The notes: generated by a model not told the origin, from the sequence alone. DNA of 64,000 nucleotides from Mobula hypostoma (GCF_963921235.1 NC_086097.1:69690001-69754000); one strand, 5' to 3'. Positions 1,636-59,936 are shown, counted from the stretch's first letter. Made by a program: numbers and translations.

Positions 1636-4426
1636 CTCCCAGCTGAATCAGCAGAATGCAATTAGGGAGTCTCCCAGCTGAATCAGCAGAGTGCAATAGG
1701 GGGTCTCCCAGCTGAATCAGCAGAGTGCAAAAGGGGGTCTCCCAGCTGAATCAGCAGAGTGCAAAAGGGGGTCTCCCAGCTGAATCAGCAGAGTGCAATA
1801 GGGGGTCTCCCAGCTGAATCAGCAGAGTGCAATAGGGTGTCTCCCAGATGAATCAGCAGAAAGCAATAGGGTGTCTCCCAACTGAATCAGCAGAGTGCAA
1901 TAGGGGGTCTCCCAGCTGAATCAGCAGAGTGCAATAGGGGGTCTCCCAGCTGAATCAGCAGAGTGCAAAAGGGGTCTCCCAGCTGAATCAGCAGAGTGCA
2001 ATAGGGGGTCTCCCAGCTGAATCAGCAGAGTGTAATAGGGGGTCTCCCAGCTGAGTGAGCGGAGTGTAATAGGGGGTCTCCCAACTGAATCAGCAGAATG
2101 CAGTCGGGGCTCTCCCAGCTGAATCAGCAGAGTGTAATAGGGGGTCTCCCAGTTGAATCAGCAGAAAGCAATAGGGTGTCTCCCAACTGAATCAGCAGAG
2201 TGCAATAGGGTGTCTCCCAGCTGAATCAGCAGAGTGCAATAGGGTGTCTCCCAGCTGAATCAGCAGAGTGCAATAGGGGGTCTCCCAGCTGAATCAGCAG
2301 AGTGCAAAAGGGGGTCTCCCAGCTGAATCAGCAGAGTGCAATAGGGGGTCTCCCAGCTGAATCAGCAGAGTGCAACAGGGGGTCTCCTAGCTGAATCAGC
2401 AGAGTGCAACAGGGGGTCTCCCAGCTGAATCAGCAGAGTGCAACAGGGGGTCTCCCAGCTGAATCAGCAGAGTGCAAAAGCGGGTCTCCCAGCTGAATCA
2501 GCAGAGTGCAATAGAGGGTCTCCCAGCTGAATCAGCAGAGTGCAAAAGGGGGTCTCCCAGCTGAATCAGCAGAGTGCAATTGGGGGTCTCCCAGCTGAAT
2601 CAGCAGAGTGCAGTCGGGGGTCTCCCAGCTGAATCAGCAGAGTGTAATAGGGGGTCTCCCAGCTGAGTCAGCGGAGTATAATAGGGGGTCTCCCAACTGA
2701 ATCAGCAGAATGCAGTCGGGGCTCTCCCAGCTGAATCAGCAGAGTGTAATAGGGGGTCTCCCAGTTGAATCAGCAGAAAGCAATAGGGTGTCTCCCAACT
2801 GAATCAGCAGAGTGCAATAGGGTGTCTCCCAGCTGAATCAGCAGAGTGCAATAGGGTGTCTCCCAGCTGAATCAGCAGAGTGCAATAGGGGGTCTCCCAG
2901 CTGAATCAGCAGAGTGCAATAGGGGGTCTCCCAGCTGAATCAGCAGAGTGCAATAGGGGGTCTCCCAGCTGAATCAGCAGAGTGCAATAGGGGGTCTCCC
3001 AGCTGAATCAGCAGAGTGCAATAGGGGGTCTCCCAGCTGAATCAGCAGAGTGCAATAGGGGGTCTCCCAGCTGAATCAGCGGAGTGCAATAGGGGGTCTC
3101 CCAGCTGAATCAGCAGAGTGCAATAGGGGTGTCTCCCAGCTGAATCAGCAGAATGCAATTAGGGGGTCTCCCAGCTGAGTCAGCGGAGTGTAATAGGGGG
3201 TCTCCCAGCTGAATCAGCAGAGTGCAATAGGGGGTCTTCCAGCTGAATCAGCAGAGTGCAATAGGGGGTCTCCCAGCTGAATCAGCAGAATGCAATAGGG
3301 GGTCTCCCAGCTGAGTCAGCGGAGTGTAATAGGGGGTCTCCCAACTGAATCAGCAGAATGCAGTCGGGGCTCTCCCAGCTGAATCAGCAGAGTGTAATAG
3401 GGGGTCTCCCAGCTGATTCAGCAGAGTGTAATAGGGGGTCTCCCAGCTGATTCAGCGGAGTGTAATAGGGCATCTCCCAGCTGATTCAGCGGAGTGTAAT
3501 AGGGGGTCTCCCAACTGAATCAGCAGAATGCAATCGGGGGTCTCCCAACTGAATCAGCAGAGTGCAATAGGGGGTCTCCCAGCTGAATCAGCAGAATGCA
3601 ATAGGGGGTCTCCCAGCTGAGTCAGCGGAGTGTAATAGGGGGTCTCCCAGCTGATTCAGCAGAGTGTAATGGGGGTCTCCCAGCTGATTCAGCAGAGTGT
3701 AATAGGGCATCTCCCAGCTGATTCAGCGGAGTGTAATAGGGGGTCTCCCAACTGAATCAGCAGAATGCAATCGGGGGTCTCCCAACTGAATCAGCAGAGT
3801 GTAATAGGGGGTCTCCCAGCTGAATCAGCTGAGTGCAATAGGGGGTCTCCCAGCTGAATCAGCAGAGTGTAATAGGGGGTCTCCCAGCTGATTCAGCGGA
3901 GTGTAATAGGGGGTCTCCCAGCTGATTCAGCGGAGTGTAATAGGGCGTCTCCCAGCTGATTCAGCGGAGTGTAATAGGGGGTCTCCCAACTGAATCAGCA
4001 GAATGCAATCGGGGGTCTCCCAACTGAATCAGCAGAGTGTAATAGGGGGTCTCCCAGCTGAATCAGCAGAGTGCAATAGGGGGTCTCCCAGCTGAATCAG
4101 CAGAGTGCAATAGGGGGTCTCCCAGCTGAATCAGCAGAGTGCAATAGGGAGTCTCCCAGCTGAATCAGCAGAGTGCAATAGGGGGTCTCCCAGCTGAATC
4201 AGCAGAGTGCAATAGGGGGTCTCCCAGCTGAATCAGCAGAGTACAATAGGGGGTCTCTCAGCTGAATCTGCAGAGTGCAATAGGGGGTCTCCCAGCTGAA
4301 TCAGCAGGGTGTAATAGGGGGCCTCCCAGCTGAATCAGCAGAGTGCAATAGGGGGCCTCCCAGCTGAATCAGCAGAGTGTAATAGGGGGTCTCCCAAATG
4401 AGTCAGCAGAATGCAATAGGGAGTCT
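1636..4426. repeat. Minisatellite, 34-bp unit CTCCCAGCTGAATCAGCAGAGTGCAATAGGGGGT, about 82 copies, in the AP4S1 intron upstream of the microexon
   Basis: Direct tandem repetition with point variants and no spacers. Confidence 0.97.
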
Positions 4427-11558: not shown

Positions 11559-12189
11559 AAACTGAAATAAGATCCACAAATAAGAGCTAAAAGATCGGTT
11601 AATTTATTTTTCATCTGTTGATAGAAGATCAGCCGCATATTGTGGGCCTAATGACCTATCTAGTGCTCTGTAGTTCTACGTTCGGTCAATCATTCATTCT
11701 TTTCACACCTCCAACTACAAATATCTTCCAACAGGTAACTTTTGCACTCTGCAGACTCATTTTGTCTATGAAACCTATCTATTACTGTCAAAACACCCTC
11801 TCTGCAGTTTCCGTATTCTTGCTTTCAAACTCCTATCATATTTCTTCCTCAAAATAACAGTGATCATTGGAAAATGATAGAAGAACCAGACCTCTTGTCC
11901 TCTCTCTGGTACAAGGTATCGTTTAGATTATATGCTCTCGCAACGGGCCCAGTTAAACACCCCACAGACAAACTTAGCGTCTTATTACAGGGGATAATTG
12001 AATGTTCAAAGACTAAGTATCGTAAGAAATCCCTTTGAATCCCTTTCCATTTCATTGGTAGCGCCCTTGAATAAACTATCATAGAATCCAAACAAAAATG
12101 TAATTCGCAAATCAGGGTTGAAAAACGTCTAATTTTCAAAACTTAAAAAAAGACTTGTTATTAGGACTAAAGCTGTGCCCACTTCTGGT

Positions 12190-13010
12190 TGCGGTGCCCA
12201 AAAGGAATCGAGTGGGCGACTCGTCTCCGGTACACCGTGGACTGCAGGTTTGTCCTTATTAAAATTCGGAATGCCGAGTCGGCCGCATTGACAGGTGGGC
12301 TGTCGCGCGCACGCCGGGACCCAGAACCTCGCGGAGCGGGCGGACGAACACGAGCACGAGCGCGCGCTTGGCGAGAGCGGCGCAAGCCCACTAACACCTC
12401 CCCCCCCGCGCCTTCTCCTCGCCCACAATGCAGCGCGCCGCCATATTCTGCAGAAAGAATGTCCATGGCGGCTCGCTGGTGGCGCTGAGGCTCGTAGGGC
12501 TCTTCTCCTCCCACTAAATGTAACAGAAATAACAATAATCTTATTAATTAATAATAAACATGGATGAACACCCCATAGGGATGTCCTCTCATGCTAATCC
12601 TAGCGGCCCTTTGCTGGGCCCGGGAAACAATGGCAACGGCGTGAACCACAACGGCGGCGGGGTTCGGCAGCCGCCGGCTCCGCAGGAGGAGCCGCAGCGG
12701 CCCCAATACACCATCCCCGGGATCCTACATTACATCCAGCACGAATGGGCCCGCTTCGAGATGGAGCGAGCGCACTGGGAGGTGGAGAGAGCCGAACTCC
12801 AGGTAGAGTGACACAGGGCAGCGGATGCGACACCGGGGGACAGAGGGGAGGCTACCCGAGCTTACAGTGAGCCGAAGGGTTTGCGCTGATTGCCTGGCGG
12901 GAACCGACGTTGGCGGCCGGGGGTTAGGGGTTGGAGCGGCGGCTGGTATTTACCCAGATGTGGAAGCCTCCTCGCCGTCGCCATTTTGGTTTCCAATATG
13001 GCGTCAGCCT
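12190..13010. promoter_or_regulatory. CpG island and shared promoter region of STRN3 and AP4S1
   Basis: The strongest non-repeat GC/CpG-rich stretch in an AT-rich window. It has NRF1-like GCGCGC runs and YY1-like motifs (CCGCCATATT ~12438, CCATGGCGGC ~12463, CGCCATTTTG ~12979, AATATGGCG ~12995), and lies at the 5' ends of two divergent genes. Confidence 0.8.
12560..12802 (+). CDS. STRN3: Striatin-3 (SG2NA) coding exon 1
   Basis: MDEHPIG...QYTIPGILHYIQHEWARFEMERAHWEVERAELQ is the striatin N-terminal caveolin-binding/coiled-coil region. Donor CAG|GTAGAG. Adjacency to AP4S1 matches known vertebrate synteny. Confidence 0.96.
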
Positions 13011-22800: not shown

Positions 22801-25165
22801 TTGAGAGATCCAAAATAAATTAAATTTTGTGATCTGCAATTTTTCCAGTTTTGGAACTGTAACAAATAACTTCACAAATAAATAGAATTTAGAATAGGAC
22901 TATTGCAAGTGAGTAATGAACTTGAAAAGAAACTCTTTAAATACAGTTGGTTAAATGGTTGAAAGGCCAAGGGACTTCGGTTTGAAGATTGGAGTCTGGG
23001 CTCATTTGAGGCTTTCAAGGCTTCATACCTGGGATGATACCTGTAACTCAACTTTTCCTTCATTTGTCCTTTTTTTTTGCTTGTAAAATATTTTTAGTTT
23101 GGTTGTGAAGGGCATACTTTCCAGTTTTGTTACCAGGTGCATTTTTGTTTTCAGAATCTATTTTTAAATTTATTTCTCATTGTGAGCTGTAGAATTTGAA
23201 TATGTGAAGCAACGTTTCTGGAAATTATTTTTACTTAGGCAAAACAGCCAGCAAATGTGCTTAATAAATCATTATGGGGTTGAGGATGAGAAGCACACGC
23301 AGAAAAGTGGAATAATTAATGTTTGTGGAAATCAGGAGGTCTTGAATGGTGAATTGTGAAATATTGTACTGAAAAAGATCGCACATTTATTACTGTCTCT
23401 CTCGCTAGGTAAGATTTTATTGGCATATTTCTTAACAAATGATGTAGCTATGTCAAATTCTGAACAGTTGCTTAAGCACAATGAATGTTTTGTAGATACT
23501 GGGCTCATTACAATTATTCTAATTATTTTTCTCACTATTTATACTTTAAAATTATTTCAGCCATGAATACAACAGGATTTTATGCTGTTTTGCAAGGTCA
23601 CTTATTATTATATAACGATAGTTATGTGAGAGGATTATTAAAAAGCAAAATGCTGGAGGTACATACTTCACAGGTCATGCTGTATTTTTGGGAAGAGAAG
23701 CAGTTGACTTTTCACATCGGATGAAACTTTAACCCTTTTCCCCCTCTCCACAGTGGGTGCTTGATCGGCAGAGCTTTTCCAGCATTTTCTGTTGTTATTT
23801 CAGATTTCCCAGCCTCTGCAATTTCTAAGCCTTTCTGAGGTTGTTGAATTCCCTATTCATTGGTCACTGATACAAGGCCCTGCCTCCTGTGATTTTAATT
23901 TTAGCAGTGCTGTTATATGAGTATCATTGTTTTCAGGTGACTTAATTGTTTTGCTTAGAATTATTCATGGCTGAAGATAGATTTACTGCGATTTCATTTA
24001 TAATTTGTCAGGTCCCAGAGAATTTTTTTTTGCATATTTCATGTCACATATTTACATTAGTTTTCATGTCCAGGAAAGTTTTACATTTGTTGCGCATTGC
24101 ATGCTTTCAACACATTTTTAATTCGTATTTGGTCTGTTGAACACCTTGTTCAAATTGTCAAAATAAAGGTAAAGTTAACTGACTTTAAATTAGAACTTCT
24201 AATGATTCATCCACATTTGCATTTAATTGCATTTTCTTAGTTTAGGAGAGCTTATTGGAAAGTTGGTGAATTTATTAAAATAATTACATAGCTTAAGCTT
24301 GTTTTATTAAGCAGGCATCGAGGGTACAATGAATATCTTTTAAGAACATGCTGCCTGGCCTGCTGCGTTCACCAGCAACTTTGATGTATGTTGCTTGTTA
24401 AAGTGATGTCATGTTTTCTAGCTGAAATTTCACCGGTGTGAACAAGGTTTATGAGAGCTGTGGAAGGAAGAGAAAGAGCATTTTTTTTCAGCTCGTTGAT
24501 TTGAATAGAGAGTACTGCATGATGTAAGAATGCATTTTAAGTTATAATATTATAAAGGAGAAAATAAAATTCTTCGTTCTTGGATTTATCATTTGAACTG
24601 TGAACATCCAACATAACTGAGTGGGTTACACACTGTCATTTCAGCTCTGGGAATTTGTGATTTTCTTTTTACAGATTCCGGTAGCTGAATATGTTCATAA
24701 TTATTTTACACTGGAAGTGAATAATTAGTATGGGAAGAATAGAAATATATTTTTCAGTGGGTGCTTTTAAATTTGTGACTGAATATGTTGTTTAGATCGG
24801 GTGAAGGGAGTAAGTATCTAATATACTAGTTGATACAGGGTCCTGACTTTAGGTGCATGTGTTATCAATAAAAAAAACTAAAATAACTGTGCCCAGAACA
24901 CATGCACCCTTACGATTCAAACATACTTTATCTCTTTGTGCATAAGGAGAACAGCATGGCTCCTGTTACCACTGTTCCAAAGCCAGGACAAAAAACTGCT
25001 GTTGTTATGTAGAATTGGCATATCAGTTATGGATATTGACTATTTGTAAATTGTATATGTTTGAATTCCTTGCTTGCAAGATCAAACACGAGGAAATCTG
25101 CAGATGCTGGAAATTCAAGCCACTGGTGAACGCAGCAGGCCAGGCAGCATCTCTAGGAAGAGGTA

Positions 25166-25203
25166 CAGTCGACGTTTCGGGCTGAGACCCTTCGTCAGGA
25201 CTA
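25166..25203 (-). ncRNA. Minimal type I hammerhead ribozyme motif
   Basis: Minus strand UAGUC-CUGACGA-AGGGUCUCAGCCC-GAAAC-GUC-GACUG, with an intact core. Confidence 0.8.
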
Positions 25204-26067
25204 ACTGAAGGAAGAGCTAGTAAGAGATTTGAAAGTGGGAGGGGGAGGGGGAGATCCAAAACGATAGGAGAAGACAGGACGGGGAGAGATGGAGCCAAGA
25301 GCTGGACAGTTGATTGGCAAAAGGGATATGAGAGGATCATGGGACAGGAGGCCCAGGGAGAAAGAAAAGGGGGAGGGGGGGAAAAGCCCAGAGGATGGGC
25401 AAGGGGTATAGCGAGAGGGACAGAGGGAGGAAAAGGAGAGAGAAAGAAAGAATGTGTGTATATAAATAAATAACGGATGGGGTATGAGGGGGAGGTGGGG
25501 CATTAGCGGAAGGTGGTGTTTCTCCAACCTGAGTATGGCTTCATCTTTACAGTACAGGAGGCCGTGGATAGACATATCAGAATGGGAATGGGATTGATTC
25601 GCTGAACACCTACGCTCTGTCCTCCAGAGAAAGCAGGAACTCCCAGTGGCCCACACATTTTAATTCCACGTCCCATTCCCATTCTGATACGTCTATCCAT
25701 GGCCGCCTCCACTGTCAAAGTGAAGCCACACTCAGGTTGGAGGAACAATACCTTGTATTCCGTCTGGGTTGCCTCCAACCTGATGGAATAAACATTGACT
25801 TCTCAAACTTCTACTAATGCCCCACCTCCCCCTCGTACCCCATCTGTTATTTATTTATATACACACATTCTTTCTTTCTCTCTCTCTCCTTTTTCTCCCT
25901 CTGTCCCTCTCACTATACCCCTTGCCCATTCTCTGGGTTTTCCCCCCCTCCCCCTTTTCTTTCTCCCTGGGCCTCCTGTCCCATGATCTTCTCATATCCC
26001 TTTTGCCAATCAACTGTCCAGCTCTTGGCTCTATCTGTTAATGCCCCACCTCCCCTAACCCCATACG

Positions 26068-26104
<37 letters not shown>

Positions 26105-26340
26105 CTTTTTCTCTCTTTTTTCTCCCTCTGTCCCTCACTATATCCTTGCCCATCCTCTGGGCTTCACCCCTCCCCCTTTCTTTCTCCCTAGGCCTCCCAT
26201 CCCATGATCCTCTCATATCCCTTTTGCCAATCACCTGTCCAGCTCTTGGCTCTATCCCTCCCCCTCCTGTCTTCTCCTATCATTTTGGATCTCCCCCTCC
26301 CCCTTCCACTTTCAAATCTCTTACCAGCTCTTCTTTTAGT

Positions 26341-26378
26341 TAGTCCTGACGAAGGGTCTCGGCCCGAAACTTCAGCTG
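26341..26378 (+). ncRNA. Degenerate hammerhead motif (stems I and III mutated)
   Basis: UAGUC-CUGACGA-AGGGUCUCGGCCC-GAAAC-UUC-AGCUG; the GUCGAC segment is changed to UUCAGC. Confidence 0.6.
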
Positions 26379-26469
26379 TACCTCTTCCTAGAGATGCTGC
26401 CCAACCTGCTGCGTTCACCAGTAATTTTGATGTGTGTGGCTTGCAAGATCAAACGCTGTTCACAACAGA

Positions 26470-31619: not shown

Positions 31620-32872
31620 ATCATATCTCTGAAGATGGTGAGTAAATTGTCCTTGTTGAGTCCCAACACCTCTCTCCATAACTGATTTCTGGACTTAGAA
31701 CAAGCTGGAGGAACTCAGCAGGTCGGGCAGCATCCGTGGAAAAGATCGGTCGATGTTTCCACGGATGCTGCCCGACCTGCTGAGTTCCTCCACCTTGTTG
31801 TGAGTGTTGCTTTGACCCCAGCATCTGCAGATTATTTTGTGTTTATGATTCCTGGACTTCCTGACAGAAAAGTCACAGAAGATATTTAGCTCTATCAGGC
31901 TGAGCACCGGTGCTGATCCCCAGTGCTATGTGCTTAGTAGCCCACTACTGTTCACGCTGCTGACTCATGACTGCACTGCTAGACCTAGGTCATACTGAAT
32001 CATCAAGTTTGCTGATGATACAACAGTGTTGGCCTCATCAACAACAACAACGAAATGCCATACAGAGAGAACGTAGAGTGGCTGGTAGAATATTGTGGGC
32101 ACGACAACTTGACGTGGACAAATCACGGGACGATTGTGGACTTTAGGGAAGTGTAGACTGACTACTACTCACTGAACGTACACAGTTCCTCTGCAGAGAG
32201 AGTTAGGAGCACCAAGTTTCTGGGAGTGCACGTAACGAATGATCTCACCTGATCCATCAACACCACCTCTTTGGTCAAAAAAGCACAGTAAGATCTCCAC
32301 TTTCTCAGGAGGTGAAGGCTGAGTGGGGCTTCTCCCCCACCCCTACCCCCATTTTAACCTAATTTTTACAGGAGCACCATTGAGAGTGTCCTGATCAGCT
32401 GCATTACCATCTGGTACAGGAATTGCAAGGCAACTAACCATAAGTCCCTATAAAGAATCGCGAGGACTGCTGAGAGGATCATCGGGGTCTCCCTTCCACC
32501 CACTAGAGATATTTATCAGGAGTGCTGCGTACACAGGCCCTTGGCATTGTCAATGATCCCCCTCACCCATCCAATAATCTCTTTGACTCTGTTAGGATGG
32601 AAAACAGCTTCTTTCCCTGGGTCTTAAGACTACTGAACTCTCTGCCACCACTGAGGTCTCATCATGTATGAAGTGCCAGTAATGTTATACTGTTTATATT
32701 TTAAACTTGTATCATATATGCATCTTATTATTTTTTAATTTATTTGTGGTAATATTACTCTGTTTTATATGTCTGAGTTATATGTAATGTGCTGTGCATC
32801 TTGGTCCAGAAGAATGTTGTCTTGTTTGGCAGTATACATGTGTGTGGTTGAATGGCAATAAACTTGAACTTG
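31620..32872 (+). mobile_element. Rex1/Babar-like LINE fragment, host of the hairpin element
   Basis: Degenerate GAxQCYVLSPLLFTLLTHDC and IIKFADDTTV; tail GGCAATAAACTTGAACTTGA. Confidence 0.8.
31697..31845. mobile_element. Miniature hairpin element built from two inverted Penelope-type pLTR tails, inserted in a Rex1-like LINE
   Basis: 44-bp near-perfect arms at 31699-31742 and 31756-31799 with a 13-nt loop. Flanked by TGAT(T/T)(T/C)CTGGACTT-type 14-bp direct repeats with one mismatch (31683-31696, 31846-31859). Confidence 0.8.
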
Positions 32873-33155
32873 ATTTTGTTCAGGTAAAAAGGTTCAGCTG
32901 CTTTAGCAGAGCAGGAGGGAAGGTAGCTGTGCCACTTCAGCTGTTAGATGATGTGCACACACCTCATATTCACTAAAATTTTTCCTAGTACCAGACTTGG
33001 AGGAATAGCCATCTGAGGAAAAATTACATTCAGGCTTACATTAGGCGGCATTTTGCAACTGGTGGAATTAAAAGTGCTGTTGGGGAATGGATTCTTTAAA
33101 CTCAATTTTGTAATATATGGTGCTGATGGCAGTGAATGCAGAAACTGTTATCAAA

Positions 33156-33639
33156 CAAGTGGGATCTCCCCGTGCCCACCCATTTTAATTCCACTTCTCA
33201 TTCCCATTCCGATATGTCCATCGATGGCCTCCTCCTCTGTCATGATGAGGCTATACTTAGGTTTGACAACACTTTGTATTCCATTTGCGTAGCCTCCAAC
33301 CTGATGGCATGAACATAGCTTTCTCATTTTTATGGCCCCCACCCCCCACTTCTCCATTTCCCATCCCCTTTTCCCTCTCTCACCTCATCTCACCACTCTA
33401 CTTCCCAGATCTTTACTTCATGCTTCTCCTCTAGGTTTCGCTATCACCTGGTGGTTCTCTCTTCTTCCCCCCACCTTTTAAATCTACTCCTCAGCTTTTT
33501 TTGTCCAGTCCTGCCAAAGGATGTCAGCCTGAAATGTTGACTGTACTTTTTTCCATAGATGCTGCCCGGCCTGCTGAGTTCCTCCAGCATTTTGTGTGTT
33601 GCTTGGATTTCCAGCATCTACTGATTTTATCTTGTTTGT
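33156..33639 (+). mobile_element. Older single Penelope-like 3' fragment
   Basis: Similar to the GIY-YIG C-terminus and pLTR of 46050-46625. 13-bp direct repeat AACTGTTATCAAA at 33143-33155 and 33640-33652. Confidence 0.82.
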
Positions 33640-34689
33640 AACTGTTATCAAAGATGCCTTGGTCTGAGGACATCTTCAAGCCTAGAGTGTGTGCGAACAA
33701 AAATATACTCTTTGCGGACAACCCCATGTTTTATCCCTACCATGTCCACCATACCATTTCCAATTTTGTTGAAGTGAGGCAAAAAGCCATAAAATCATGC
33801 ATTTAGAATAGCAGTATCAAAAATATGTCTTCGCTGTTCAAATTAAAAATATTATCAGTCACAAGTGGGTGGAATGAGCCACATGTATATACAGCAGGTA
33901 ATGTTATACCAAAAGCTATAGTGTAGGAACCGGAAAATCTCACGTAAGTATTGTCTTTAACAACTTTAATTCTTTGATGTAAATGTTTTTGGCCGTACTG
34001 TAAAATGCTTGCAATTTTGCATAACTCTTCTCATCTCACACATATAAATGTATGTTTTCCTTTAACTTAGGTTGCACCTTATTTATGCTAATATTTATTA
34101 AAATTGATGTCCCTGCTTTTAGAGTTAATCTGGAATACTTTGAGAACATTTACGCACGTGTTCTACTTGTAGATTGACATCATTACCTTCTGTCTGACAC
34201 TTTTATATGCCAATTGACAGTGCAAGGGAAACCTTTTCGTAGAGCTCCTACTTGATCAGTTTAGTTCAAGGTACATTTAAATCAATATTACTTATCCTAT
34301 CTGCCTTACATCTCCTGTAATGCTATTGGGAACTGTTGCCTGTGACAGGGCACCGGCTAATGCTGGCCTCAAGTACTCAAGAGTCACCACTTGGCCTAAG
34401 CTTTGTTGAAACTCTGCCTGAGCTAGGTGGGGTACAGCATCTTGGGCACTAATGAGATGCTGCACTACACCAACAGTGGAATTCCATTCCATCACAATTT
34501 TTAAACAGTATGGCCTCTCTCTGCAAACTTTCAAAATCAGGGAATTCACTCAGGTTCATTCCGCTTTTGCTATTTAAAGTAACTACACAGTTACTCAAGT
34601 TCCCGCTTACTATAGGGGCTGTGAGGCTAGGGGCTCTATTATACAGCTCACTGGAGTAATCATCCCCGTGTTGTTTTTAAGTTCTATCA

Positions 34690-35916: not shown

Positions 35917-37525
35917 CAGGTTTCCACTGTCATCCGAAGGTAGAGTGTTCCTATGAAACGGTTTGTAAGCCGGAATGTCGTAAAGCGAAGAAGCAATTAT
36001 TTATTTATTTATATGGGAAAAATTTGTGAGCGTTCGCAGACCCAAAAATAACCTACCAAATCATGCCAAATAACACATAAGACCTAAAATAACAGTAACA
36101 TATAGTAAAAGCAGGAATGATATGATAAATACACAGCCTATATAAAGTAGAAATACTTTTCCACAATCATTGCCTGCACTGTTCTCCGTAGCGAAAATCT
36201 CATGTAAGCGCTCTCGGCAAAAACACTCTCTCCAGTAACCTTTAAGCTATGAAGCTGCCAAATCATAGCAAATAACATGTAAAAATACACATCCGATATA
36301 AAGCAGAAATAATGTATGTACAGTGTATCACTTACCGGAATTGGGACAGCACCGAGCACACTGATGATGGTGTGTTAGGCTGAGTCGTCGGAGGTTGGGG
36401 TGGTGCAGTGGCCCCCACCCTCCGGGCAGTGACCCGATACCGATCCGCGAAGCATGTAGGGGTACAGTGGTGGCCAGGAGGCACACAGCACATCTTTAAG
36501 AAGAAAGCTGAAATAAACAAGCTAATTAATTAGGTACCGTCCGGCACGTAAATGTTGGCCTAGATCAGAGGCGATTGCCAATTGCATCGCCTCTGATCTG
36601 GGCCGACAATTACGTGCCGGGTGGCACCTAATTAATTAGCATGTTTATTTCGGCTTTTTTCTTAAAGATGTGCTGGCCTTCCGGCTACCGCTGCATTCTC
36701 TGCGAATCGGAATCTGTCCACGGCCCGGGGGGTGGGGTGGTGGGACACTGGGGTGTCATCTCATCATCGTCTGTTTCCATTAGGGCAGGCAGCTCATCTT
36801 CTCCTGTGACTGCCCGCCACGATGTCGAAGGTCGAGGTTCGTCGTTTGCTGTGGCTGATGTGGAAGGCTTACTTGACTACTGAACCTTGTGCATTTTTCT
36901 ATCATACGGTTCTTTGAAGCACTCAAACCATCTTGCAAGTATGCCCTAAAGAACGTACCGTTTCAAAATTAAAGTCGTACTTCATCATTGCAGCGAAAAT
37001 CTCACGTAGTTGCTTCAGGTTCAGTTCCTGGACAACTTCACTTTCGGTCCGTTCGCTACTGCATTCGGTTTCGATTGTTATCCTTTCCTCTTCCAATTGC
37101 ATCAGCTCTTCATCTATCAGTTCTTGGTCAAGGGATGCCAAAACCTCTTCAACATCATCTTCGTCAACTTCCACAAGCCAAACTCACTTTGTCCTTACTT
37201 CGTTCTCCATGATCAAAATGCTTAATTATGTCTAGTTTTACGTTAAGTGTAACACCCTTACGAGCTCTTTTAGGTTTTTCTGATACCTTAGAACTCATCT
37301 TGCTAATGGATGCTCACAGGCACATGTTTAAGCAATGCCGGCGAGAATGCCGTTCCGAATACGGGGGGAGAGCGGCTGCTCGGGGCATGCGCTGATTTTT
37401 TTCACGTGCTGCCTTTTTTCGTAACAGTGAAAACACCTTCTGTTAGCGAAAACAGGTAACTAATGTAGGTCTTTTGTAACACTGAGGTTTTGTAAAGCGA
37501 ACGTTCAAAAAGTGGGGGACACCTG
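35917..37525 (-). mobile_element. Tigger/pogo-family DNA transposon, internally deleted
   Basis: TA|CAGGTTTCCAC...GTGGGGGACACCTG|TA imperfect TIRs with a TA TSD. ORF 36923-37174 (EVDEDDVEEVLASLDQELIDEELMQLEEE) resembles the acidic Tigger transposase C-terminus. Confidence 0.82.
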
Positions 37526-41499: not shown

Positions 41500-42270
41500 T
41501 AAAAAGAAAGACAAACTGATCCTCAATACCCCCTTGTGCAATTGGATTCTGGATTTCCTCACTTGCAGACCCCAGTCACTTCGAATTGGCAAAAACATCG
41601 GCACAATCTCTCGGCACAGGTGCACCACAGGGATGTGTGCTTAGTCCCCTGCTCTAATCGCTTTACACCTATGACTGTGTGGCTAAGTACAGCGCCAACA
41701 CCATTTTCAAGGTCGCTGATGACACCGCTGTTGTGGGCCTTATTAAAGATGGTGATGAATCATCATACAGGAGAGACATTGAAAATTTGGCTGAGTGGTG
41801 CCATAACAACAACCTCTCGTACAATATCAGCAAGACCAAAGAACTGATTGCAGAGGTCCATGAGCCAATACTCATCGAAGGAGCAGAAGTGGACAGGGTC
41901 AGTAATTTTAAGTTCCTGGGTGTCACAACCTCAGAGGACCTGTCCTGTCCATGATATAAATGTAATTGCAAAGAAAGCACAACAGTGCCTCTACTTCCTC
42001 AGGAGTCTGGAGAGTTGGCATGTCATCAAAAACCTTGACAAACTTCTGTAGAAGTGTGGTGGAAAATGTATTGACTGCCTGCAATATGGCCTAGTATGGA
42101 AACACCAAGGCCTTTGAGCAGAAAATCCTACAGAAGGACGTGGAGTTGGCCCAGGACATCACGAGTAAAGCTCTCCCGACCGTTGAGCACATCTGTATGA
42201 AACGTTGTTGTTGAAAGGCAGCATCCGTCATCAAAGATCCTCTCCATCCAGGCCCCATGCACTTTCCTCT
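41500..42270 (+). mobile_element. Rex1/Babar-like LINE fragment
   Basis: [47 protein letters not shown]. Confidence 0.85.
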
Positions 42271-42549: not shown

Positions 42550-42830
42550 ATAGAAGGTACATAATAACACTGAGGAATTTAAAGTTGCTGACCCTCTCTA
42601 CCACTGATCCTCTGAGGACTGACTTGTGGATCTCTGGTTTTCTTCTCCTGAAGTTAGTAGTCTGCTCCTTGTTCTTGCTGAAATTGAGTAAATTTGAGGT
42701 TGTTATGGCACCACTCAGCCAGATTTTCAATATCCCTCCTATATGCTGAGTCATCACCATCTTTGCTTCAGCCAACGACGGTGGTGTTGTCAGCAAATTT
42801 GAATATAGCATTGCTGCTGTGCTTAGCTAC
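42550..42830 (-). mobile_element. Inverted Rex1/Babar-like fragment
   Basis: Minus strand KFADNTT...VERVSNFKFLSV, homologous to 41690-41930. Confidence 0.75.
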
Positions 42831-44291
42831 GTGACAAGATACCTGCACCAATTAAGCGGCATAATGTCCCAAGTAAATAGCTGCCTCGATATATCGGAAC
42901 CCATTGTATTTTATAAGTGATGTGCTGGGCCAAAGGGTTCATTTTTGCACTGTACAACTGTTATGTTGGAAATCACTTGTGCTTTTATTAATTTATCAAC
43001 TTGAAAGAGCAATTATCAGGTATCTCAAACTTCAGTGCACTGTTGATAGATGTCTTGAGCCTGTCATTCAGGATAGCAATTTTCATTAGTGTATTAAGTA
43101 ATTCAACAATTGTGGATATTTTACAAATTCCACTCGTCCTTCCATTGTGTTTATACACTTGTGCTTTCAATGCTGATTGCTGTTATATAATTAGAACTGG
43201 TATATCTATTGATTTCTCATCACTGTTCTATTACCTGCTCTTTATTGCTGTTTAATTCTATAAAATTAATGTTAACTGTGATTGAAGATTGTGTTTGATC
43301 AGCTTTCTCTTTTCCAAAGGCTATAAACATGATTTTAAAAGGGAGCGGGTATAAAGTCTGCCCTTCCTCGTGTTAAGGACAATACTTCAGACTCAGTAAA
43401 AATGAAAAATGAACTGTAACATAGTAAAAGTGATTTATCAAAACTAAAAATATTAGCTGTAGGGGTAGAACAGGGTCAGTTGCCTAATTAAAAGTATGTA
43501 ATAATGAACACAATTTAAGAAATAAAGCATTAATTAGAACTGTAAATTGAATTCAGGGTGTTGTGTAATGGCCTTGAATGAGTGCTGTCTATCATGTTGA
43601 ATGACTTGGAAGAGAAAAATTTGAAGTATTTGGATAGGGAAATCACAGAAGAAGGACAAGCAAAGTTTACTGATTGTTTTACAATATTTAAGAATTATCA
43701 ATAAACATGCACAGGCAGTAGAAGGCCAATGAGTGGAATCGATTAGGAAAAATGCACAATCTTGATAGTTTGCATCTTTGGATAGCAATAAGTCAGCTAG
43801 GTACTTAAATCTGTCAGAAACTTATTGCTAAGATATTCGAAATGGGAGAATTTGACTTGTGATAGTGAGGCCTATACTTGCTTTTATATTGCAGGATATC
43901 TAATACCAAAGTCTGGTAGCATTGAGCAGTTAGATGTGGAAATCCACAGGTTGCTGTTATTCATTCCCTGTGCTTCCACAAAGCATATTGTTGTGACTGT
44001 GTCAGATGTAATTTACTGTTTATCTGTTTGTTTTCACCTTAAATTTTTGAAAATTTAATCTTGTTGAGTGGTGTATTTGACATAATTTCAACTTCCTGTG
44101 CTTTAGTTTTTATTTGTTTGAGATGTTCTCTTTTACCTCAAGTTCAAAGTAAAATTTATTATCAGAGTACATACATGTCACAACATACAAACCTGAGTAA
44201 CAGGAATTCTGCAGATGCTGGAAATTCAAGCAACACACATCAAAGTTGCTGGTGAACGCAGCAGGGCAGGCAGCATCTGTAGGAAGAGGTG

Positions 44292-44329
44292 CAGTCGACG
44301 TTTCAGGCCGAGACCCTTCGTCAGGACTA
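44292..44329 (-). ncRNA. Minimal type I hammerhead ribozyme motif (mirror copy)
   Basis: Exact reverse complement of 46527-46564. Confidence 0.82.
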
Positions 44330-46526
44330 ACTGAAGGAAGAGTAAGTAAGGGATTTGAAAGTTGGAGGGGGAGGGGGAGATCCAAAATGATAGGAGAAGA
44401 CAGGAGGGGGAGGGATAGAGCCAAGAGCTGGACAGGTGATAGGCAAAAGGGGATACGAGAGGATCATGGGACGGGAGGTCCGGGAAGAAAGACGGCGGGG
44501 GGGGGGGGGCCCAGAGGATGGGCAAGAGATATATTCAGAGGGACAGAGGGAGAAAAAGGAGAGTGAGAGAATGAATGTGTGCATAAAAATAAGTAACAGA
44601 TGGGGTACGAGGGGGAGGTGGGGCCTTAGCGGAAGTTAGAGAAGTCGATGTTCATGCCATCAGGTTGGAGGCTACCCAGACGGAATATAAGGTGTTGTTC
44701 CTCCAACCTGAGCGTGGCTTCATCTTTACAGTAGAGGAGGCCGTGGATAGACATGTCAGAATGGGAATGGGATGTGGAATTAAAATGCGTGGCCACTGGG
44801 AGATCCTGCTTTCTCTGGCGGACAGAGCGTAGATGTTCAGCAAAGCGGTCTCCCAGTCTGCGTCGGGTCTCGCCAATATGTAAAAGGCCACACCGGGAGC
44901 ACCGGACGCAGTATATCACCCCAGTCGACTCACAGGTGAAGTGTTGCTTCAGCTGGAAGGACTGTTTGGGGCCCTGAATGGTGGTAAGGGAGGAAGTGTA
45001 AGGGCATGTGTAGCACTTGTTCTGCTTACACGGATAAGTGCCAGGAGGGAGATCACTGGGGAAGGATGGGGGGGACGAATGGACAAGGGAGTTGCGTAGG
45101 GAGCGATCCCTGCGGAATGCAGGGTGGGGGGAGGGAAAGATGTGCTTAGTGGTGGGATCCCGTTGGAGGTGGCGGAAGTTACGGAGAATAATACGTTGGA
45201 CCTGGAGGCTGGTAGGTGAGGACTAAGGGAACCCTATTCCTAGTGGGGTGGCGGGAGGATGGAGTGAGAGCAGATGTACGTGAAATGGGGGAGATGTGTT
45301 TAAGAGCAGAGTTGATAGTGGAGAAAGGGAAACCCCTTTCTTTAAAAAAGGAAGACATCTCCCTCGTCCTAGAATGAAAAGCCTCATCCTGAGAGCAGAT
45401 GCAGTTGCAAAAACGCCATCCCCTTCTCGCAATTCCTCCGTCTCCGCCGCATCTGCTCTCAGGATGAGGCTTTTCATTCTAGGACGAGGGAGATGTCTTC
45501 CTTTTTTAAAGAAAGGGGCTTCCCTTCCTCCACTATCAACTCTGCTCTTAAACGCATCTCCCCCATTTCACGTACATCTGCTCTCACTCCATCCTCCCGC
45601 CACCCCACTAGGAATAGGGTTCCCCTAGTCCTCACCTACCACCCTACCAGCCTCCGGGTCAAACGTATTATTCTCCGTAACTTCCGCCACCTCCAACGGG
45701 ATCCCACCACTAAGCACATCTTTCCCTCCCCCCCCCCGCATTCCACAGGGATCGCTCCCTACGCAACTCCCTTGTCCATTCGTCCCCCCCATCCCTCCCC
45801 ACTGATCTCCCTCCTGGCACTTATCCGTGTAAGCGGAACAAGTGCTACACATGCCCTTACACTTCCTCCCTTACCACCATTCAGGGCCCCAAACAGTCCT
45901 TCCAGCTGAGGCAACACTTCACCTGTGAGTCGACTGGGGTGATATACTGCGTCCGGTGTTCCCGAAGTGGCCTTTTATATATTGGCGAGACCCGACGCAG
46001 ACTGGGAGACCGCTTTGCTGAACGTCTACGCTTTGTCCGCCAGAGAAAGCAGGATCTCCCAGTGGCCACACATTGTAATTCCACATCCCATTCCCATTCT
46101 GACATGTCTATCCACGGCCTCCTCTACTGTAAAGATGAAGCCACGCTCAGGTTGGAGGAACAACACCTTGTATTCCGTCTGGGTAGCCTCCAACCTGATG
46201 GCATGAACATCGACTTCTCTAACTTCCGCTAAGGCCCCACCTCCCCCTCGTACCCCATCTGTTACTTATTTTTATGCACACATTCTTTCTCTCACTCTCC
46301 TTTTTCTCCCTCTGTCCCTCTGAATATACCTCTTGCCCATCCTCTGGGTCCCCCCCCCCCTTGTCTTTCTTCCCGGACCTCCTGTCCCATGATCCTCTCG
46401 TATCCCCTTTTGCCTATCACCTGTCCAGCTCTCGGCTCTATCCCTCCCCCTCCTGTCTTCTCCTATCATTTTGGATCTCCCCCTCCCCCTCCAACTTTCA
46501 AATCCCTTACTCACTCTTCCTTCAGT

Positions 46527-46564
46527 TAGTCCTGACGAAGGGTCTCGGCCTGAAACGTCGACTG
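46527..46564 (+). ncRNA. Minimal type I hammerhead ribozyme motif in a Penelope pLTR
   Basis: UAGUC-CUGACGA-AGGGUCUCGGCCU-GAAAC-GUC^-GACUG has both catalytic boxes, a short stem II, a palindromic ACGU stem III, a GUC cleavage triplet and stem I (AGUC/GACU). Confidence 0.82.
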
Positions 46565-47429
46565 CACCTCTTCCTACAGATGCTGCCTGGCCTGCTGCGT
46601 TCACCAGCAACTTTGATGTGTGTTGATACAAACCTGAGATTCTTTATCTTTATTCTCACATTCATGTGCAATCTGTATTCATCTGTCCTGAAATGTTTAA
46701 AATAGTTAATATTGCCAATAGTGCTTGTTATTTTCAGGTTTGCAGTTTGAGTGAAGTCTTCAATGTGATTAACTCCCTGTTGCTGGATGTCAGGAATGCT
46801 GGCAGCTGACAACAACTGATACCTTCTAAGAATAAATCCATGCTACAAATTATCATGTCCATGAAACAGTTTTTTTTGGGATTAGCTTCACAGGTCTTTC
46901 TTTGGCCACTGACAGAAGACTGCAAGCCTTCAAATGCACGAAGGCCATGGAAAGTAGAACTACTCTCGAATACATGGTTTTATTTGGGACAATTTTCTAG
47001 AATACTCTGTTCTTGAACTAGCAGGCTTTCAGAACATATTTGATTTTTTTTAATGAAGTTTTAGATATAAACAAGTTGGGAGGAAGAGCAGGTGACTGAG
47101 TCACCAATGAAAGTTTAAATTTAAGTGATGGAGCTGCAATTAACTACCAATAATTTCAGGAATAGCAAGGAATACAGTCATAAGTAGATGAGTTAAGTGA
47201 AACTAGAAGCACTGCTTCTTCACAGCTATTGTGACCTTGTTTCAATCAAATGGTTCAGTCTAATGGTGGCACGCAAGGATACAGCAGCTTATCTAGCTCC
47301 CAATAATGATGCTAATTTTAAACTCTTAGATAGTGTTTCAATGTTTCTAGTCAAGACACTACAGTCAACCAAAGTTCCATGAATACAGCATTGCTGAACT
47401 CTGACAAAATTACTTTTAAAGCGACCGGC

Positions 47430-59832: not shown

Positions 59833-59936
59833 GCTCGGATAGCATTTTTACAAGGAGAAAGGAAAGGTCAGGAAAACTTGAAGAAGGATCTAGTAAGAAG
59901 AATAAAAATGTTAGAATATGCTTTAAAACAAGAAAG
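59833..59936 (+). CDS. STRN3: STRN3 coding exon 2 (104 nt)
   Basis: ARIAFLQGERKGQENLKKDLVRRIKMLEYALKQE(R) continues exon 1 in frame; acceptor TTTATCTTGCAG, donor AAG|GTAATT. Confidence 0.97.

Follow-up and report, generated by a model that had tools for sequence, protein, structure and literature searches.

A head-to-head Penelope-like insertion forms an imperfect palindrome in STRN3 intron 1 of Mobula hypostoma

Introduction

Endonuclease-bearing (EN+) Penelope-like retrotransposons (PLEs) have a characteristic insertion structure. A typical PLE carries an inverted, 5'-truncated copy and a tail of 30–40 bp at one end (Craig et al., 2021; PMC8557442, Fig. 2 legend), and the parts of PMC3846280 covered here give the same architecture with TSDs of 9–10 bp and call the head-to-head arrangement the most frequent one (Arkhipova et al., 2013). 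How PLEs build their tandem and inverted insertions is stated to be open in the sections of PMC8557442 covered, and the covered sections of PMC9977147 and of a retrozyme preprint held nothing on PLE inversion. Among the clades, a CX2-5CxxC linker is described for Neptune and Nematis and as absent from Penelope/Poseidon (PMC8557442). The biochemistry comes from the Poseidon element PAc of Anolis carolinensis (Frangieh et al., 2024; PMC11167929): the purified protein cut both strands of DNA and extended each of them, beginning RT at two sites, one on each side of the tail, and it is predicted to form a dimer. PAc belongs to a different clade, without the Cys linker, and the parts of that paper covered do not address inverted copies. 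Penelope copies in D. virilis likewise contain long inverted repeats whose size varies (PMC2377424 shows large inverted terminal repeats) and are a reported siRNA source (PMC3681739).

Here we describe a palindrome in STRN3 intron 1 of Mobula hypostoma, within a window (the whole stretch of DNA analysed) of 64 kb. It is an ordinary but well-preserved head-to-head PLE insertion, one more example of a known architecture. The structure is not surprising when set beside the published PLE norm and two further inverted insertions in the same intron; the general remark of the initial annotation, that PLEs often carry inverted partial copies, agrees with the covered parts of PMC8557442 and PMC3846280. 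Like canonical EN+ PLEs, such as those of the Fig. 2 legend and Pen2a_Av, the insertion has a head-to-head inverted 5'-truncated copy, one TSD, a tail at one end and a hammerhead motif in the pseudo-LTR. Unlike them, both of its copies are truncated at nearly one point, so that the whole insert is palindromic and lacks an RT and a second pseudo-LTR. Its TSD, at 13 bp, is longer than those of the Adineta examples (9–10 bp; PMC3846280), and while it shares with the Neptune and Nematis clades a C-terminal GIY-YIG domain with CCHH residues and the CX2-5CxxC linker, its target is an AT-rich repeat remnant rather than a microsatellite. The value of the locus is as a clean example of a PLE inverted insertion; a single decayed copy in itself matters little.

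Results and discussion

Architecture of the palindrome

The arms at 44231–45402 and 45449–46625 are reverse complements that are 96.5% identical over 1180 aligned columns, with 30 mismatches (24 of them transitions) and three indel events; arm divergence is 2.6%. Positions 45403–45404 prolong the left arm with one CpG-type change, so that the arms meet at 45404/45405, and in family contigs the sequence 5' of 45405 lacks these two positions. Because those contigs start the plus copy at 45405 and 45403–45404 continue the left arm, the unpaired centre is 45405–45446, which shortens to 42 nt the 46-nt spacer given previously. The main junction is blunt, without microhomology, and the two whole copies, taken from their coordinates, are nearly equal in length (about 1206 and 1221 nt; Table 1).

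The 64-kb window contains the 13-mer ATACAAACCTGAG at just two places, 44185–44197 and 46626–46638, and the loose ends of family contigs at 44199–44202 coincide with the end of the tail. The arm match, the TSD pair and the one-sided tail are far beyond chance. Apart from spacer length, then, the initial annotation described the unit well: reverse-complement arms distinguished by scattered substitutions and small indels, a centre in the plus-arm reading frame (it belongs to the plus-strand right copy), one 13-bp TSD bounding the whole, a terminal extension limited to the left arm and, given the one TSD and one-sided tail, a single insertion event. We also considered a palindromic DNA transposon (MITE or foldback) and rejected it: the ends are unequal, with a tail on one side, the centres differ among the three inverted insertions of the intron, and the identical terminal inverted repeats of a unit that moves as a whole are not found.

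The insertion target is an AT-rich repeat remnant. In run X1 the summed depth was about 2e5 in the bin 44095–44187 versus about 20 in unique flank, and flank contigs of both organism A (X1) and organism B (X5) end at 44167, inside this high-copy repeat, of which no second copy was found within the 64-kb window.

Table 1. Coordinates of the features, counted from the first letter of the window.
Feature	Position	Strand	Remarks
STRN3 coding exon 1	12560..12802	+	Striatin-3 residues 29-93; GT site
Family 3'-end fragment	24348-24397		50 bp; without clear TSD
Second inverted insertion, same family	25072..26454	.	16-bp TSD; tail left; partial tandem right
Third, miniature inverted insertion, related PLE end	31683..31859	.	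14-bp TSD (1 mismatch); tail right
Simple 5'-truncated PLE copy, older, not inverted	33143-33652		Tail and exact 13-bp TSD
Remnant of another high-copy repeat, insertion target	44140..44197	.	Loose ends pile at 44140 (X1, X5, X10)
Left TSD copy	44185..44197	+	13 bp; only two copies within 64-kb window
PLE 3' tail	44198..44230	-	About 32 nt of family sequence + 1 nt; left end only
Left arm: 5'-truncated PLE copy	44231..45404	-	ORF end, 3' UTR, pseudo-LTR; 3' end outward
Minimal hammerhead motif, left	44293..44328	-	Motif match
Left ORF remnant	44626..45222	-	CX4CX2C linker, GIY-YIG with CCHH; 8-nt deletion at about 45216 breaks frame
Right copy: 5'-truncated PLE without tail	45405..46625	+	ORF remnant; stop 46230-46232; frameshift at about 45734
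Unpaired centre	45405..45446	+	42 nt; extra 5' part of tail-less right copy, in frame
Minimal hammerhead motif, right	46528..46563	+	Motif match
Right TSD copy	46626..46638	+	13 bp, exact
STRN3 exon 2	59833..59936	+	Striatin-3 residues 94-129; AG site

Identity of the element

The element is almost certainly a PLE, as originally proposed, and of the EN+ type. Each copy comprises the last ~260–275 codons of the ORF, the 3' region and the pseudo-LTR. The C-terminal GIY-YIG domain has the CCHH residues of EN+ PLEs, as the alignment places its cysteines between VIY and YIG and shows a conserved pair of histidines; the Pfam GIY-YIG matches (E 0.0076 and 0.0027; 17 and 18.4 bits) fall under the gathering score of 22.6. 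As in other EN+ PLEs, the pseudo-LTR arrangement includes an inverted 5'-truncated copy, the tail of the 30–40 bp class is one-sided (44198–44230, at the left end) and TSD length varies, with 13 bp at the main unit and, at three further insertions, 16, 14 and 13 bp. Both arms contain a C-x4-C-x2-C linker, which fits the CX2-5CxxC pattern of Neptune that is common to Nematis, and which Penelope/Poseidon elements, having no Cys linker before the endonuclease, would not show. The linker and CCHH residues thus point to a Neptune or Nematis type, an assignment read from these residues in an insert without RT.

A search among longer proteins gave 14 matches in 627 candidates, the best 92% identical and from Mobula hypostoma itself, followed by Hypanus sabinus; several ray gene models among the matches are chimeras of host genes and this element. 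The RT has been truncated away in both copies, and in homologues at 92% and 44% identity an RT with a YIDD motif lies upstream in the same frame. With the RT absent and both frames broken, the insert is incapable of moving by itself. A Pfam PEPcase match was rejected as chance, and the metagenome and prokaryote contigs searched contained no related loci.

The hammerhead core pattern has five matches in the window, four of them in PLE ends, with a short, G-U-closed helix II, and an Rfam search returned no hammerhead match at E<=1. The pseudo-LTR carries a minimal hammerhead at motif level, a predicted ribozyme, whose layout agrees with that given in the covered part of PMC4209133. The 13 matches that Rfam did give at E<=1 all scored under the gathering thresholds, were mostly generic hairpins and were rejected as miRNA genes.

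Authenticity and age of the insertion

The palindrome is a real, aged insertion and not a fold-back artefact, because both arms carry private, transition-rich changes. Mismatches are spread evenly along the arms (six bins hold 5, 7, 7, 3, 6 and 3), and CpG-type changes make up 11 of the 31. The 40 variant rows listed, out of 234, already include 13 of the 31 mismatches as changes that only the left arm has, so that at least 13 are of this kind; at those 13 sites >93% of family depth matches the right arm; the right arm in turn has at least 6 private amino-acid changes. An assembly or library artefact (a fold-back read), or two separate insertions that happen to adjoin, could be entertained insofar as none of the contigs listed for 42700–45460 spans the centre or the left TSD junction, and assembly of long palindromes is known to be troublesome (PMC8557442, covered part). 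The opposite-strand joints seen near 45390–45460 are uninformative here, since ordinary family copies make them. Yet a fold-back artefact would give near-identical arms without TSD or tail, whereas this unit has 31 substitutions and three indels set evenly along its arms, mostly transitions, a single exact TSD around the whole, a centre free of target DNA, a tail at one end, and two other insertions with the same layout nearby; both possibilities are hardly credible.

The arms have two rare alleles in common, at 44713 and 44952, which make up 4.0% and 4.5% of X1 family depth and about 10% in X5. The arms therefore stem from one subfamily, which does not prove that they stem from one RNA.

To date the insertion, we set the non-CpG divergence of the arms (20 of about 1079 columns) beside the divergence of the flank. 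The X1 flank contig had no differences in 1320 bases, so that this run may come from the source sample; organism B differed at 15 of 1416 (Fisher p 0.12 against arm divergence) and organism C at 58 of 1194 (Fisher p 7e-5). If the arms were identical at birth, these values suggest an insertion age between the splits from organisms B and C; the insertion would then be expected to be missing from organism C and would probably exist in organism B.

Family abundance and neighbouring insertions

Intron 1 holds five insertions of the PLE kind: three inverted, one simple and one fragment (Table 1). In the second inverted insertion, at 25072–26454, the centre is 77 nt and comes mostly from the tail-less plus copy; element and target share 5-nt matches at both ends, and the left arm is closer to the inner plus segment than to the outer one. 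In the miniature insertion at 31683–31859, the 13-nt centre comes from the tail-less left copy and the unit is centred just past the hammerhead GAAA, with 4-nt fold-back homology.

The PLE family is extremely abundant in Mobula hypostoma reads. From run X1, 260,593 contigs mapped over 2.8 kb (42700–45460, i.e. left flank, left arm and centre), and summed depth, which is not a copy number, ran to millions over the arm versus about 20 in the flank. Family contigs pile up loose ends at 44239–44328, the hammerhead edge, and have joints to the opposite strand there, which suggests many small fold-back insertions, or related families that have only that end in common.

Origin of the inverted unit

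The sequence displays a 13-nt staggered cut and two element 3' ends that both face outward, one starting from the tail end and the other from an inner site. That PAc starts RT at two sites bounding the tail (PMC11167929, covered part) explains why there are two end types here, tailed and tail-less. In all three inverted insertions of intron 1, moreover, the centre (42, 77 and 13 nt) lies on the tail-less arm.

Our best explanation is a single PLE retrotransposition, since decayed, combined with a cDNA fold-back route; taken jointly, we put these at somewhat better than even. The GIY-YIG nuclease would cut both strands, and the right DNA end would prime cDNA at the inner, tail-less start site. 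This cDNA would run about 1.22 kb and stop at 45405, where its end would fold back and give rise, by copying, to the mirror arm. Priming of the left DNA end would take place at the tail start site; the resulting cDNA would anneal to the mirror strand and close the gap. As the sequence shows, both arms have since decayed neutrally. Since it is the tail-less copy that contributes the centre, fold-back of cDNA by itself cannot yield the tail.

The junctions speak on both sides of the fold-back step. On the one hand, four nucleotides at the junction of the 31.7-kb copy are self-complementary, as fold-back would leave, and cDNA of the main copy that stops at 45405 closes a stem of 9 bp if G-T pairs are counted, as it would at 1.2% of the 1155 end points possible. 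On the other hand, this stem is weak (-2.5 kcal/mol, z -0.77), no stabler than in shuffled sequence, and was singled out post hoc; it includes just four Watson-Crick pairs, and 16% of positions do as well. Extension from the 45405 stem would start 14 nt before the actual left-arm start, so that fold-back needs an added skip or a later central deletion, and the 25-kb copy has no clear junction homology.

Two start sites do not account for arms that stop so close together. Independent truncation of two copies would end within 42 nt in 2.5–7% of cases under a uniform model, and so some coupling between them is needed. Coupling might instead come from a PLE dimer that primes both ends, its RTs stopping together and the cDNA ends being joined bluntly; the tail-less arm would start about one tail length inward and so end further 5'. 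The near-equal copy lengths (about 1206 and 1221 nt), the lack of microhomology at the main junction, the rarity of independent truncation so close together, and a protein that is predicted to dimerise and extended both strands in vitro (PMC11167929, covered part) would all be expected from such a dimer. However, centre lengths (13, 42 and 77 nt) correspond poorly to a tail of 32–40 nt, and the 4-nt homology of the 31.7-kb copy fits fold-back instead. We regard the dimer, both in its joint stop and in its inward start, as unlikely though far from negligible, a close rival of the fold-back route that we favour.

Antisense RNA might alternatively prime itself and give a pre-integration hairpin, which an endonuclease would resolve to leave the tail on one side (PMC3846280, covered part). 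This is the published reading of head-to-head junction palindromes there, and it accounts for the near-symmetric centre and the alleles that the arms share, but in vitro the PLE protein used sense RNA and took target DNA ends as primers (PMC11167929, covered part), and self-priming gives no reason for the centre to lie on the tail-less arm. We consider it improbable.

We tentatively propose, with less than even confidence, that the unpaired centre lies consistently on the tail-less arm; centre, junctions and alleles would then record PLE integration. The sample for this polarity rule is three insertions, all in one intron. We found no statement of the rule in the literature searched, outside which figures, supplements and Arkhipova 2006 may show it. 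If it holds across ray copies, the polarity could decide among the fold-back route, coupled RT dimers and antisense self-priming.

Predicted consequences of the palindrome

The arms of an STRN3 sense transcript would pair along about 1.17 kb, including 16 perfect runs of at least 30 bp (the longest 115 bp), with 13 of the 31 arm mismatches becoming G-U pairs, and the central 661 nt are predicted to fold at -624.8 kcal/mol. The hairpin of >1 kb in STRN3 pre-mRNA that had been proposed is thus a sound prediction by both pairing and folding. Like any intronic inverted repeat, it may be edited, and either editing or siRNA production is plausible by analogy: in transformed D. melanogaster, siRNAs corresponded to the inverted parts of Penelope copies (PMC3681739, covered part). 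In run X9, presumed to be RNA, A>G and T>C differences occurred at 26 and 15 places versus 28 and 15 in DNA run X1, counts that carry no information on editing, since family copies swamp the locus. On inverted-repeat editing in sharks, the parts of the literature covered offered nothing beyond a general review.

We conclude that the palindrome is without function of its own. That it has been retained, either for a hairpin that regulates STRN3 (by editing, retention or splicing) or as a feed for siRNA defence against the family, would draw on the extensive pairing just described and on the D. melanogaster siRNAs. Yet the arms have gathered mismatches and indels evenly, nothing points to compensatory change, and the insertion is >13 kb from either exon and one of three in the intron, all of which makes retention very improbable.

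The initial annotation also held that long palindromes with short spacers are usually unstable. This argument is weak here, as persistence is no surprise given 2.6% divergence and a spacer of 42 nt, and frequent cruciform extrusion seems unlikely because spacer length and divergence both suppress instability. In yeast, Alu inverted repeats recombined about 40-fold less when the spacer was lengthened from 12 to 20 bp (PMC10164571), and a 52-bp spacer abolished frequent fork stalling in eukaryotic cells (PMC7999016), according to the covered parts of those papers; these comparisons concern yeast and primate cells and Alu arms shorter than the PLE arms here.

Ray genomes appear to hold very many inverted PLE footprints. 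If long inverted PLE pairs occur elsewhere at the density of this intron, they would also supply much of the intronic double-stranded RNA in rays, as inverted Alus do in primates.

Host gene and other features of the window

Exon matches and GT/AG splice sites uphold the reported location in STRN3 intron 1. Residues 29–93 and 94–129 of Striatin-3 adjoin without a gap across exons 1 and 2, which makes the intron 12803–59832 (47 kb), and the palindromic unit lies on the STRN3 sense strand, with >13 kb between it and each exon. A CpG island (12001–13000, observed/expected about 1.0) covers exon 1, and about 8 kb upstream of that exon is a minisatellite with 82 copies of a 34-bp unit (1636–4426). 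Just after the right hammerhead motif, at 46566–46580, a pyrimidine tract and CAG resemble a splice acceptor on the STRN3 sense strand.

An unrelated, CpG-rich palindrome at 36486–36675 has 90-nt arms that are 90% complementary around a 10-nt spacer; a TSD of at least 8 bp was looked for there and not found, and it is possibly part of a DNA transposon. Finally, inverted fragments at 41679–41842 and 42666–42830, 76% alike and about 820 nt apart, resemble a LINE reverse transcriptase region and are separate old copies.
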